Of a stretch of 55,007 bases of DNA, positions 17,115 through 19,545 are shown piece by piece; position 1 is the first letter of the stretch; each line of letters begins with the position of its first letter. The notes below the pieces were generated by a model that worked only from the letters and a program-made list of their open reading frames with translations, was not told the DNA's origin and did no database searches. Source of the stretch: Bacteroidetes bacterium 4572_128 (GTDB lineage Bacteria; Bacteroidota; Bacteroidia; Bacteroidales; 4572-128); contig NBLL01000044.1 of NCBI GenBank assembly GCA_002084355.1, positions 1 to 55,007 on the forward strand. Reading direction: 5' to 3'. The position numbers and the translations under genes are program-made.

Positions 17115-17302
17115 ATTTTAAATTTTTTCAAAAAAATGTTTTTTTTTATTAAAAATAAAATTTTTTTTTAATGAAATGTTAAGAATTTAAAAAAAAAATT
17201 TTCAAAAAAACGCCAAATTTTTAATGATTTTTAAATTATTAAAAAAAAAATTTTTTCAAAATTCGTCCAAAATTTTAATGATTTTAAAAAATCGTTAAAA
17301 CA

Positions 17303-17334
17303 AACATTGGTATTAAAAAAAAACCTCCAATGTT
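17303..17334 (-). repeat. CATTGG hairpin element (reverse orientation copy).
   Basis: AACATTGGTATTAAAAAAAAACCTCCAATGTT. Its reverse complement matches the copy at 1830-1862. Confidence 0.7.
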
Positions 17335-17393
17335 AAAAATATTTTTTCAAAAAAATGCCAAAATTTTAATGTTTTTAAAAAATCGTTAAAACA

Positions 17394-17424
17394 AACATTG
17401 GTATTAAAAAAAAACTCCAATGTT
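17394..17424 (-). repeat. CATTGG hairpin element (reverse orientation copy).
   Basis: AACATTGGTATTAAAAAAAAACTCCAATGTT, 91 bp after the previous copy within a duplicated composite unit. Confidence 0.7.
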
Positions 17425-17659
17425 AAAAATATTTTTTCAAAAAAATGCCAAAATTTTACGATTTTAATTTATTAAAAAAAAAATTTTTTCTTCAAAAACG
17501 CCAAAATTTTAATGATTTTTAAAAATTTTTAAAAAAAATTTTTCCAAAAAACGACAATTTTTTACGAATTTTATAATTAAAAAAACGCTAATCTTTTACG
17601 AATTTTATAATTTAAAAAAAAATTTTTCTTCAAAAACGCCAATTTTTTAATAATTTTTT

Positions 17660-19141
17660 TTAATCAACAACTTTAATTTTTATAATTTCAATATTTTCTA
17701 AACCTTCATAATCAACACATTTACAAGCAATTTCATATTTACCTTCTTTTTTAAATTTATGTTTTACAATTCCCTTTTTATCATATAAAATATTAGATTT
17801 AAATTTATCTTTAAAATCAAAATCCCATGAAAAAAAATTTATTCCATTTTCTGAATGAGAATTCTTTTTTGCGTCAAAATAAAAAATATTTTTTTCATTC
17901 GTAATAGATATGGAAATTTTAGGCTTTTTTGAAATTGGTATAAAATCGGAAATTTCAATAAGCTTAATGTTATAATTATCTTCACGATTTAATCTTGCAA
18001 CTTCTGCATTTGCACCTTTTCCAAAACTCCAAGCAAGAATAAAACCATTTTTTGATTTTTTCCTATCAATGGCAGATTTGAAATTATCAACTACATTTCT
18101 ACCGATACTTTTTGACTGTTTTATCTGAAGAAAATATTTAACTCCGTCAATTATTTTTACGCCGTCTATTCCGAAATCAGCTCGTTGTTTTTTGTTTGGA
18201 ACACCGCCGAACTGCTCAACAACAAAATGCTCAAATTCAAAAGGATTCATTTTATCCAAAGTTTCAAAATCGTATTTGTGAATATGAACACTGAAAGATT
18301 TTTGAAACAAATCCTTAATTTTATATAAACGATTTTCGGTAATTTTTACAGCAGCAACTGAACTGTCAACACCTATCCAATTCCTATTTAATTTCTCCGC
18401 AACAGAAATTGTTGTACCACCACCAAGAAAAAAATCTGCTACAATGTCGCCTTCATTTGAACTTGCCAAAATTATGCGTTCAAGTAATTTCTCTGGCTTT
18501 TGTGTTGGATAACCAATTCTTTCTTTGGCTGTTCCTTGCACAAAAGGAATTTCTAAAATATATGTAGGTTTACCTTTTTTCATGTAAGCAATTCTTTTTT
18601 CCCCATTTTTTTTATTATTATAAATTTTATATCTTTTTCCGTCTTCATCTATTTTATCATATCGCTTTTTTGCTTTTTCATCATAATCAACCAAAATTTC
18701 CTCATAATTAAAAATATAATTATCGCTTTTTGTGTAGAAAAAAATTAAGTCATGGTTATTTGGATATTTTTTTTTACTACTGTGCGGTTTAAAATATTTC
18801 CAAATAATTTGATTTCTAAAATTATTTTTTCCAAAAACTCTGTCTAAAATATAAACTTTTATTTCTGCGAAAGCGTGCCAATCGCAATGCAAATAAAAAC
18901 TTCCTGTTGGTTTTAAAAGTCTATACATTTCTTCTACTCTTTCGTAGAGCCAATTTATATAAGTTTCTATTCCTCCGGACCAAATATCCTTAAAACTTGC
19001 AACTTCTCCTTTGTCATTCCAAATTACAGCATAATTTCTATTTGAAAAAAATGGTGGGTCAATATAGATTAAATCTATACTTTCACTTGGCAGATTTTTC
19101 ATAATTTCAAGATTATCGCCGAGTATTAATTTATTACACAT
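17660..19141 (-). CDS. Beta-class (N6A/N4C) DNA methyltransferase fused to an Mrr-like restriction-endonuclease domain and a C-terminal PKD-like domain.
   Basis: 493 aa. Motif IV DPPF (aa 28-31) precedes motif [12 protein letters not shown] (beta-class order). Residues at about 295-400, [13 protein letters not shown]...[22 protein letters not shown], fit the Mrr catalytic core (D...QxK). The last roughly 70 aa, [10 protein letters not shown]...[31 protein letters not shown], fit the PKD pattern WDFGDG...H.Y..G.Y.V.L.V.D..G. Confidence 0.8.
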
Positions 19142-19223
19142 AATTTTTTTAATTAATTAAAAATTAAAAATATAAAAAAAAAGTCATTTTTTGTGATTTT
19201 TTTTTATATTTTAAAAAAAAATA

Positions 19224-19264
19224 TTGTCTACGCCTTGCGGTGTTTTCACCGCACAATTATTCAT
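19224..19264 (+). repeat. GC-rich hairpin element (TTGTCTACGCCT-TGCGGTG-TTTT-CACCGCA-CAATTATTCAT).
   Basis: 7-bp stem TGCGGTG/CACCGCA with a TTTT loop. Its reverse complement is identical over the first 27 nt to 52499-52525. Confidence 0.75.
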
Positions 19265-19545
19265 ATTTAATTTATATTAAAAAAATTCAAAAATCGTTCA
19301 AAATTTTAATGTTTTTTATTTTGAAATTAAAAAAAAATTTTTTTCAAAATTCGTCCAAAATTTTAATGTTTTTAAAAAATCGTTAAAACAAACATTGGTA
19401 TTAAAAAAAAACCTTCAATGTTAAAAATATTTTTTCAAAAAAATGCCAAAATTTTAATGATTTTTAAATTATTAAAAAAAAATTTTTTCAAAATTCGTCC
19501 AAAATTTTAATGTTTTTTATTTTAAAAATAAAAAAATTTTTTTTA
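19265..19545 (-). repeat. Tandem array, reverse orientation, about 5 units with one embedded CATTGG hairpin (19391-19422).
   Basis: CAAAAATCGTTCAAAATTTTAATG, CAAAATTCGTCCAAAATTTTAATG (twice) and AAATGCCAAAATTTTAATG read directly. Confidence 0.85.

Follow-up and report, generated by a model that had tools for sequence, protein, structure and literature searches.

Why does each of four accessory genes in one stretch of DNA (the window, 55,007 nucleotides) lie between two arrays of the same repeat, and why do both arrays of a pair point the same way? A sequence-only reading of the window had proposed that the arrays are sites at which accessory and defence cassettes are exchanged or deleted, and that core operons contain none. 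An iterated nhmmer model of the repeat unit confirmed arrays on both sides of all four loci, and both flanks agree in orientation in 4/4 pairs (++ around the DNA methyltransferase (MTase) gene, -- around the other three). Throughout, '+' denotes an array for which the + strand reads TTTTTCAAAAAnCGnCCAAAATTTTAA, called 'reverse' in the earlier reading, and '-' corresponds to its 'forward'. The features on which the argument rests are listed below; G001 is the only congener.

410..567, -: repeat array of 3 units, left flank of the HsdR_N/DUF5655 gene (nhmmer model, TRF)
558..1468, -: HsdR_N/DUF5655 gene, two ORFs in this record (Pfam DUF5655, E=4e-9)
1554..2091, -: repeat array of 9 units that separates the DUF5655 gene from the 3' end of fabH, a core operon (nhmmer model)
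13102..13591, +: repeat array of 9 units between a WD40 gene and PEPCK; synteny junction with G001
17188..17658, +: repeat array of 7 units between holB and the MTase gene
17660..19141, -: DNA methyltransferase (N6_N4_Mtase) fused to an Mrr-type nuclease domain (Pfam)
19286..19526, +: repeat array of 4 units between the MTase gene and ferredoxin; synteny junction with G001
23751..24238, +: variant array with a 49-54-bp unit and ATGCCAATTTTTTTATGAA core, missed by the model and found by TRF and sequence; synteny junction
30014..30944, +: repeat array of 16 units, the window's largest, in the convergent spacer after the alpha-2-macroglobulin (A2M) gene
39281..39794, -: repeat array of 8 units with a variant TTGACG core, PCMT on one side and the GHKL-nuclease gene on the other
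39828..41917, -: fusion of a GHKL ATPase with an HsdR_N-like nuclease, split in this record
42048..42228, -: repeat array of 3 units, with the GHKL gene before it and the peptidase S9/CheA block after it
44760..44807, -: single repeat unit, left flank of the 217-aa nuclease gene
44988..45641, +: gene for a 217-aa PD-(D/E)xK-type protein with invariant E68, D112 and K133
45670..45828, -: repeat array of 3 units on the right of the 217-aa gene
48767..48850, -: remnant of a 263-aa methyltransferase-like gene (tblastn), intact in G001; marks a rearrangement breakpoint beside the next array
48970..49276, -: repeat array of 7 units next to the korAB operon, on its korB side
52431..52678, +: repeat array of 3 units bordering the korA end of korAB, opposite in orientation to 48970-49276

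The CATTGG...CCAATG hairpins reported for both MTase-flanking arrays were confirmed by sequence, with two inserts in 17188-17658 (~17305-17333 and ~17395-17422) and one in 19286-19526 (~19392-19419). Two gene descriptions had to be corrected. Pfam gives N6_N4_Mtase and Mrr_cat for the MTase-Mrr gene and no PKD domain, and the supposed GHKL/nuclease gene pair is a single 710-aa gene in five other assemblies. The HsdR_N/DUF5655 gene is likewise one 327-aa gene in another assembly. The window record carries 60-83-bp deletions relative to other assemblies, and its exact DUF5655 ORF is not on public record. The description of core operons as array-free holds for their interiors, since no array lies inside yceD-rpmF-plsX-fabH or korAB, where there is no spacer to hold one; it fails at their edges, because both operons are bordered by arrays (1554-2091; 48970-49276 and 52431-52678).

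What kind of sequence forms the arrays? Genome-wide, the iterated model detects one A/T-rich family of ~57-bp repeats, with 3,469 units in 786 arrays, compared with 0 matches in a block-shuffled genome. The unit consensus is AAAAAAAATTTTTTTCAAAAAACGTCCAAAATTTTAATATTTTTTAAT, repeated head to tail in arrays of 1 to >15 units (TRF periods within the window arrays, 50-58 bp), and together these occupy 7.3% of the assembly, a MAG of a Bacteroidota with 23% G+C. Called ORFs cover about 7% of array bases (13.7 of 189 kb), in a gene set that is ORF-based and not the product of a trained gene caller. Arrays are present in 495/2,067 spacers overall, in 244/287 (85%) of those longer than 500 bp and in 2/767 of those of 50 bp or less; convergent spacers carry them most often (47%), followed by divergent (29%) and tandem (18%) spacers. 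Hairpin inserts occur in 81/786 arrays. A CRISPR array was considered and rejected, since the units follow one another directly, head to tail, without unique spacers between them, and a search of the arrays against Rfam matched no known RNA family. The core motif is present in 688 copies in this genome and 849 in G001, with 0 copies across 29 other families of the order; judged by these counts, the repeat family is restricted to the genus. Array length varies between assemblies and between species, this genome and G001 both being short-read MAGs in which array lengths and some joins are uncertain, and 86/302 contig ends fall in arrays.

Does a shared orientation single out the four loci as cassettes? 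Across the genome, neighbouring arrays with one gene between them agree in 69/101 cases (~70%), a rate against which the window's 4/4 is unremarkable (p=0.24). Concordance is 63/99 across two genes, 86/145 across three or four and 51/109 across five to eight, and is down to chance by about five genes. Shared array orientation is thus a distance-dependent property of the whole genome and not the signature of a cassette. Nor does it depend on which strand carries the bracketed gene (35 vs 34). Sequence similarity follows the same pattern: same-orientation flanking pairs (0.889) are as alike as neighbouring units within one array (0.890), while random pairs score 0.864 and opposite-orientation neighbours 0.858. 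Three candidate causes of the orientation were rejected. The bias relative to gene strand is weak (164 vs 132 arrays in tandem spacers; 35 vs 34, as above), and concordance decays within ~3-6 kb, which argues against replication strand. Furthermore, adjacent arrays within one spacer are inverted in 101/147 cases, and so the concordance does not come from instability of, or selection against, nearby inverted copies.

Which genes lie between arrays? Arrays stand on both sides of 124/2,218 genes (5.6%), and the single genes bracketed in this way include ThrRS, aconitase, PBP1A and WecB; arrays also border korAB, the fabH block and PEPCK-holB. Counterparts in G001 exist for 43/51 bracketed genes and for 45/51 array-free monocistronic controls, an equal frequency (p=0.77), and median identity to G001 is 96% for both sets (MWU p=0.95). 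Bracketed singles show an excess of defence, toxin-antitoxin (TA) or mobile-type genes, 6/24 vs 0/20, in a small sample (p=0.025). The proposed specificity for accessory genes is therefore not supported, given the occupied long spacers, the bordered core operons and the bracketed essential genes; the proposed enrichment next to defence and accessory genes survives as a bias in annotation.

The comparison with G001 covered 46 kb of the window, on both sides of segment 26000-35499. All 14 array-bearing spacers coincide with synteny junctions, compared with 2/30 array-free spacers (p=1e-9). Several of the array junctions are G001 contig ends and uninformative, and about nine or ten are true breaks at which the G001 contig continues into other genes. 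This amounts to about one true break per 5 kb between genomes that are ~94-96% identical in their genes. Core blocks are rearranged at arrays in the same way, and indels of 3.4 kb and of single genes are found there too; the 3.4 kb, with four additional ORFs, lies in G001 at the site of array 17188-17658. Of the four named cassettes, three are not the same in both species: the DUF5655 gene has no match in G001, the GHKL gene lies there between arrays in a different neighbourhood, and the 217-aa nuclease gene is missing from the syntenic site, where it is replaced. The fourth, the array-MTase-array unit, is kept in G001 at about 95-96% identity with both flanking arrays included, and is thus old and stable. 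Direct arrays can thus flank a non-essential gene over the long term without deleting it. At the junction near korAB an array stands beside the broken methyltransferase remnant, an arrangement that we counted for the view of the arrays as recombination seams. The two species thus differ at arrays in junctions and in three cassettes; the stable MTase unit and the moving core blocks speak against a dedicated cassette system.

Could these junctions be chimeric joins made across arrays during short-read assembly, with both the bracketing and the synteny breaks spurious? The contig ends in arrays, the 60-83-bp deletions of this record and a 100-N scaffold gap inside an array of another assembly all point that way. 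However, the window's order A2M...Fd/MTase/holB...PEPCK/WD40 is found again in an ENA scaffold, the order GHKL/S9-CheA/217-aa/MMPL/korBA recurs in five assemblies from different assemblers, and the G001 order is present in a second NCBI assembly, which makes an artefact extremely improbable.

The 217-aa PD-(D/E)xK proteins form the largest paralog family of the genome (28 ORFs, about 28-31 loci) and are strongly associated with the arrays: 14/31 loci are bracketed by arrays, compared with 5.6% of genes overall (p=2e-10), and the flanking arrays agree in orientation in 13/14. The catalytic E...D...ExK residues are conserved and the protein model is confident (pLDDT 92), with a restriction-endonuclease-like fold; Pfam, NCBIfam and PDB hold no known family for it by sequence, and the similarity is at the level of fold. 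Could these proteins cut in or next to the unit and so create, spread or recombine the arrays, much as RAYT proteins act with REP? By analogy they might, and the family is multicopy in both this genome (40 matches) and G001 (58). Several observations speak against it. G016, from another family, has 14 members and 0 core motifs, and tandem arrays are absent around the six of its loci that were inspected. With 37-72% identity, the paralogs are old and diverged, and many are pseudogenes; more than 95% of arrays have no such gene nearby, and arrays point either way relative to the gene (5 vs 4). We regard a nuclease-driven origin as highly improbable. The most far-reaching idea would join arrays and paralogs into one repeat-targeted recombination system, in which the nuclease would nick or cut the 57-bp unit and array-flanked modules, preferentially defence genes, would be exchanged between array loci or with incoming DNA; such a system would be a counterpart of integron cassettes based on homologous recombination and would reshape the entire chromosome as well. 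It is a speculation to which we give very little credence.

How, then, should the association between arrays and structural change be read? If the arrays belonged to a system dedicated to the gain, loss and exchange of accessory and defence cassettes, same-orientation pairs would be the direct repeats for excision, deletion and swapping. The three variable cassettes, the enrichment of defence-type genes, the embedded and co-oriented nuclease family and the close similarity of flanking arrays would all be expected. Against this, essential genes are bracketed and core operons bordered, bracketed genes are neither less conserved nor more diverged than controls, and orientation concordance is as high with two to four genes between arrays before it decays with distance. 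Rearrangement at array sites also affects core blocks, and the MTase cassette is stable in both species. No integrase or recombinase linked to the arrays was found by Pfam among window ORFs of 100 aa or more. Moreover, public contigs found through the ferredoxin, fabH, PCMT, holB, MTase and 217-aa proteins contained no within-species empty-site or deletion allele and no alternative junction; these contigs show the window's order or are short, nearly all stopping in arrays. A dedicated system is accordingly improbable, and of the proposal that the arrays serve as cassette exchange or deletion sites we retain the coincidence with structural change and not the accessory specificity. Alternatively, the arrays might simply accumulate where breaks are tolerated, a minisatellite expanding at operon borders, 3' ends and decaying regions that marks seams without making them. 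This is an argument against a causal role, and it accords with the preference for convergent spacers and with the fact that breakpoints must lie between transcription units anyway. G001 has no array at the site of the methyltransferase remnant, which fits arrival of the array after or with the break. Yet true breaks at this density and level of gene identity far exceed what operon borders alone would yield, and array-bearing and array-free spacers of the window differ too sharply (14/14 vs 2/30). Highly similar dispersed repeats in hundreds of copies are also established recombination substrates, as for the neisserial NIME arrays (PMC1797815). Passive filling is possible, though unlikely.

We conclude that the arrays are probably general recombination seams and not a device specific to accessory genes. 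In the scheme that we favour, a genus-restricted, non-coding ~57-bp minisatellite has colonised the spacers between transcription units, and ~800 homologous arrays, in both orientations, bound every transcription unit with recombination-prone sequence. Homologous or slipped recombination between arrays would then cut the chromosome at these seams, and the intervening blocks would be moved, inverted, deleted or inserted. We infer this causal role from the coincidence of arrays and breaks, and the route by which neighbouring arrays became related from their likeness in orientation and sequence, which suggests one local ancestor array, either split by inserted DNA or spread locally. Given such a common local origin, a short module, core or accessory, would often find itself between direct repeats. 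Genes that can be spared, namely those for defence, TA and the 217-aa nuclease family, appear gained, lost or relocated because their change is tolerated, whereas essential ones are bracketed as often and yet persist. The cassette pattern of the window thus likely arises as a side effect of a general seam structure that has a moderate bias towards accessory genes.

Is there a precedent for such arrays? A literature search for an equivalent described in Bacteroidales found nothing relevant. The arrays consist of non-coding units, tens of bases long and joined head to tail, at many intergenic loci, and so qualify as a minisatellite or VNTR; the known systems nearest to them are NIME, REP/BIME, MIRU/VNTR and integron cassettes. 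The NIME arrays of Neisseria (dRS3 plus RS repeats) are intergenic, non-coding and variable in length, and each genome holds hundreds of copies (Bentley et al. 2007, PMC1797815). They carry opportunistic insertions and have been proposed to raise recombination of flanking genes, and array pairs around genes, or array-flanked incoming genes, could recombine into chromosomal arrays (PMC1797815). Our arrays share these properties, down to insertions within arrays and a proposed role as recombination substrates; like NIMEs, they are dispersed intergenic arrays of a lineage-specific repeat, variable in length and associated with structural change (14/14 vs 2/30). They differ in being simple head-to-tail runs of a single 57-bp unit, whereas a NIME is an alternating succession of 20-bp inverted-repeat dRS3 copies and RS elements from many unrelated families; a dRS3-like element is absent here. 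Genes flanked by NIMEs diverge more between strains, while bracketed genes here do not exceed controls in divergence. dRS3 is the target of a phage recombinase, while none was linked to our arrays, and phylum and base composition differ as well.

The REP/BIME elements of Enterobacteria and Pseudomonas, with their RAYT (TnpA-REP) proteins, resemble the arrays as short intergenic repeats in hundreds of copies clustered at operon ends, accompanied by a multicopy, repeat-flanked enzyme gene, by rearrangements and by use as insertion targets for mobile elements. However, REPs are ~35-bp imperfect palindromes in inverted pairs, unlike these long head-to-tail arrays without a strong palindrome. RAYTs are HUH Y1 transposases, whereas the embedded protein here has a PD-(D/E)xK fold and direct flanks in 13/14, and repeat and enzyme do not co-occur across lineages (14 members and 0 core motifs in G016). 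Mycobacterial MIRU/VNTR loci likewise consist of 40-100 bp units in head-to-tail intergenic arrays, dispersed in the genome and variable in copy number, but MIRUs number ~40 loci and often lie within operons, translationally coupled; here ~790 arrays make up 7% of the genome and lie outside operons, at synteny breaks. Integron cassettes are the nearest parallel to single promoter-less or short accessory genes separated by recurring same-orientation repeats. Beyond this the resemblance ends. IntI, attI and Pc are missing, with no integrase or recombinase detected by Pfam in window ORFs of 100 aa or more, and in place of one attC-like imperfect palindrome per cassette there are multi-unit arrays scattered chromosome-wide. 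Integron cassettes are co-oriented with their site, while gene orientation here is random relative to the repeat (35 vs 34). Nor is the content accessory-only, as ThrRS, aconitase, PBP1A and WecB are bracketed and conservation equals that of controls.

The arrays explain why these genomes assemble poorly, and they show that a repeat-flanked gene is no proof of a mobile cassette when the repeat occurs everywhere. If the arrays truly act as seams, the genus would stand at the extreme of genome plasticity driven by repeats, with a single minisatellite making up ~7% of the DNA and gene order broken about every 5 kb between species ~95% identical in their genes. It would then offer a natural system for studying the effects of dispersed tandem repeats on bacterial chromosome architecture, and for asking what lets essential genes persist between direct repeats and whether the seams help defence genes to move.

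The repeats around the methylase ORF are head-to-tail, A/T-rich and 53-57 bp in period (TRF). How far does this family extend? An nhmmer profile, built from 29 units anchored on the core CG[CT]CCAAAATTTTAA and then iterated, identifies 3,469 units genome-wide at E<0.01 and 0 in the genome shuffled in 200-nt blocks. When merged, these units form 786 arrays covering 189 kb, or 7.3% of the assembly. The core motif is present in 688 copies in the window's genome and 849 in its congener G001, with 0 copies in 29 other families of the order; the repeat family is therefore genus-restricted. 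A nine-unit array at 23751-24238, from a diverged subfamily with a ATGCCAATTTTTTTATGAA core and units of 49-54 bp, was missed by the iterated profile, so the genome-wide array count is an underestimate. The repeat has no match in Rfam, a CRISPR array was rejected because the units abut without spacers, and a Pfam scan detected no integrase among the window ORFs of 100 aa or more.

The sequence-only reading had proposed that such arrays bracket accessory genes at four loci:

558-1468, HsdR_N/DUF5655 gene
17660-19141, minus strand, methylase-Mrr gene
39828-41917, GHKL/nuclease locus
44988-45641, gene for a 217-aa protein

The nhmmer profile places arrays on both sides at all four, and flank orientation agrees in 4/4 (p=0.24 under the genome's own concordance rate), so the array pattern noted at these loci is borne out. 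The 493-aa methylase ORF carries an N6_N4 DNA-methylase domain and an Mrr-type nuclease domain (Pfam; region 17000-19700); the PKD domain ascribed to it was not found by Pfam. The array-methylase-array unit is kept in both species at 95-96% identity and is therefore an old, stable arrangement rather than a recent insertion. G001 contains no match to the DUF5655 protein. As had been noticed, hairpin elements are inserted in both arrays around the methylase gene; those in the window are:

~17305-17333, CATTGG...CCAATG hairpin
~17395-17422, CATTGG...CCAATG hairpin
~19392-19419, CATTGG...CCAATG hairpin

This element, CATTGG(A/T)G(G/T)T...A/T run...CCAATG, has 136 copies genome-wide, 126 of them in or adjoining arrays, is carried by 81 of the 786 arrays and behaves like a second, nested repeat inserting into array units. 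G+C-rich stem-loops of the GCGGTG-loop-CACCGC type, distinct from the array unit, lie at array edges by the methylase and 217-aa genes (19224-19264 and 44840-44885).

The record itself is a 2.6-Mb MAG of 151 contigs and 23% G+C, judged from its type-IX-secretion sorting domains to belong to the Bacteroidota; the window is one entire 55-kb contig, and our gene set comprises 2,218 ORF-based genes. Many genes look split because short coding pieces are missing from the record. Relative to an ENA scaffold (L010) that is otherwise 99-100% identical, the missing pieces are:

13798-13805, ~26 bp
16159-16171, ~79 bp
16784-16785, 83 bp
20576-20579, 60 bp

Their loss splits holB, an M20 peptidase and PEPCK; other assemblies likewise have CheA, MMPL and the GHKL gene unbroken. 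Five other assemblies have one 710-aa ORF in place of the supposed GHKL/nuclease pair, G001 has one of 721 aa, and the description of the HsdR_N/DUF5655 gene needs adjustment: it is a single 327-aa ORF in another assembly. The "pseudogenes" of this MAG are short deletions specific to this record and do not stem from single-base homopolymer errors.

Do the arrays separate accessory from core genes? Of 2,067 intergenic spacers, 495 contain arrays, the share rising from 2/767 of those at most 50 bp long to 244/287 of those above 500 bp, and are found in 47% of convergent, 29% of divergent and 18% of tandem spacers. The tight blocks said to be free of arrays indeed hold none inside, but korAB has arrays on either side, the fabH block has one at its end, and PEPCK-holB lies between two "+" arrays (the orientation earlier called reverse). 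That operons are free of arrays therefore tells us no more than where arrays reside, namely in spacers.

Across the genome, 111 genes stand alone between two consecutive arrays. We annotated 24 of these (at least 2 units on each side, same orientation, at least 140 aa, nuclease family excluded), 19 by Pfam scan and five by reading their translations. Those with Pfam assignments include housekeeping or envelope genes (threonyl-tRNA synthetase, aconitase, PBP1A, UDP-GlcNAc 2-epimerase, NAD-epimerase, a TonB receptor and an FGE-sulfatase T9SS protein) and defence, toxin-antitoxin or mobile-type genes (an AAA_21/AAA_15 ATPase, a PDDEXK_2 "transposase", KilA-N, Fic, a Schlafen/AlbA_2 protein and a PIN toxin). 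From their translations only, we take the other five to be a permease, a peptidase, a T9SS protein, a TPR-SpoIIE protein and an RND pump. Among 20 array-free, monocistronic-like genes drawn at random as a control, none was of the defence, toxin-antitoxin or mobile type. The contrast of 6/24 with 0/20 (Fisher p=0.025; 44 genes in all) therefore indicates a real but modest accessory bias; the proposed enrichment at defence genes holds to that extent, but core genes are bracketed too. Conservation was compared using 170-bp mid-gene pieces from 51 bracketed single genes and 51 array-free monocistronic-like controls. At ≥85% identity, 43/51 bracketed and 45/51 control pieces were found in G001 (p=0.77), with a median identity of 96% in each set (Mann-Whitney p=0.95). 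Bracketed genes are therefore neither missing more often nor more diverged, as expected if arrays flank core and accessory genes alike, and specificity for accessory genes is not upheld. G001 is the single congener compared; the remaining relatives come from different families.

What, then, underlies the shared orientation? Consecutive arrays with one gene between them agree in 78/111 cases (p=2e-5). With the nuclease family excluded, agreement varies with separation but not with the strand on which the enclosed gene lies (35 vs 34).

Same-orientation consecutive arrays, nuclease family excluded
Genes between arrays: 1, 69/101; 2, 63/99; 3-4, 86/145; 5-8, 51/109
Distance between arrays: <1.5 kb, 72%; 1.5-3 kb, 68%; 3-6 kb, 55%; 6-12 kb, 38%

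The last value, from 74 array pairs, is below 50%; either noise or a structure of alternating domains may account for it. Selection against nearby inverted repeats would also yield concordant neighbours, but inverted arrays abut within single spacers in 101/147 cases, and this cause is therefore ruled out. Flanks of the same orientation resemble each other (0.889) as closely as neighbouring units of a single array do (0.890); random array pairs score 0.864 and opposite-orientation neighbours 0.858. The simplest reading is shared local ancestry: one ancestral array may have been split by inserted DNA or, alternatively, an array may have spread or been converted locally across a few kilobases.

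The 217-aa protein, of PD-(D/E)xK type, belongs to the genome's largest paralog family (28 ORFs, 31 tblastn loci, 37-72% identity), with invariant residues E68, D112 and K133. Arrays lie within 400 bp on both sides of 14/31 of its loci vs 124/2,218 of all genes (p=2e-10), and orientation agrees in 13 of those 14. The protein has no sequence match in Pfam, NCBIfam or PDB. Its AlphaFold model (pLDDT 92) best matches, by Foldseek, mammalian mitochondrial ribosome chains, which we take to be mL37/mS30-type proteins with a restriction-endonuclease-like fold; next, and weak, come lambda exonuclease, Cas4 (SSO0001) and Exo5, which fit such a fold. The family profile has 40 hits in the window's genome, 58 in G001 and 14 in G016, a 5.7-Mb genome from another family of the order. 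G016 has 0 copies of the repeat core, and six family loci examined there have no tandem arrays around them. Loci there (L028-L033) include:

G016:C457:178-2206, 217-aa-family locus
G016:C366:153-2724, 217-aa-family locus

Some G016 copies stand as three genes in tandem, and many are on very short contigs. The family therefore multiplies without these repeats, and it is likelier to be a common occupant of arrays than the agent that makes them.

Gene order was compared by BLASTN of 46 kb of the window (up to 26 kb and from 35.5 kb on) against G001, and by searching four G001 loci against the window's genome; completeness is 73% for the latter and 91% for G001. Shared blocks are 86-99% identical, and all block boundaries fall in arrays. 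Among the spacers compared, 14/14 array-bearing ones are synteny junctions vs 2/30 array-free ones (p=1e-9). About nine or ten of the 14 are true breaks, at which the G001 contig runs on into other genes. One difference is a 3.4-kb stretch of G001 placed between holB and the methylase array: its four additional ORFs are without match in the window's genome and form a candidate accessory module, specific to the species, that would have been inserted at an array. These ORFs (G001:C287:6846-9726, L009; 568, 46, 152 and 153 aa) recur in a second assembly; none has a Pfam hit on record, and the three larger have no tblastn match in the window's genome. In G001 the ferredoxin-M20-YebC block is found on the opposite side of PEPCK, and the GHKL gene lies between arrays, adjoining a block found on contig C53 of the window's genome.

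In G001, CheA, a 263-aa methyltransferase-like gene, a 134-aa gene and MMPL form a compact, array-free, co-directional run. In the window, the MMPL block is inverted and the 217-aa nuclease gene and arrays follow CheA. The sole surviving remnant of the 263-aa SAM-methyltransferase-like gene, whose G001 copy is unbroken, is at 48767-48850, beside an array (48970-49276) absent from G001; it pins one rearrangement breakpoint inside a gene, directly by an array. Could these joins be chimeric? The window's order is found again in an ENA scaffold and five assemblies from different assemblers, and the G001 order in a second NCBI assembly; chimeric joins are therefore rejected. Of 302 contig ends in the window's genome, 86 are at arrays; nearly all public short-read contigs end inside arrays, and no within-species presence/absence allele was seen among them.

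The NIME arrays of Neisseria are intergenic repeat arrays proposed to raise recombination of flanking genes; it was suggested that array pairs surrounding a gene, or array-flanked genes arriving on incoming DNA, might enter arrays of the chromosome by recombination (Bentley et al., PMC1797815). The arrays described here resemble them in distribution and association with structural change, but differ in architecture, have no linked recombinase, and show no excess divergence of flanking genes. The cassette proposal is partly upheld: it keeps its dispensable defence-type tenants, in moderate excess, but loses its accessory/core distinction. The picture that fits best is of general recombination seams made up of a genus-specific minisatellite and moderately enriched in such tenants, and not of a cassette system separating accessory from core genes.
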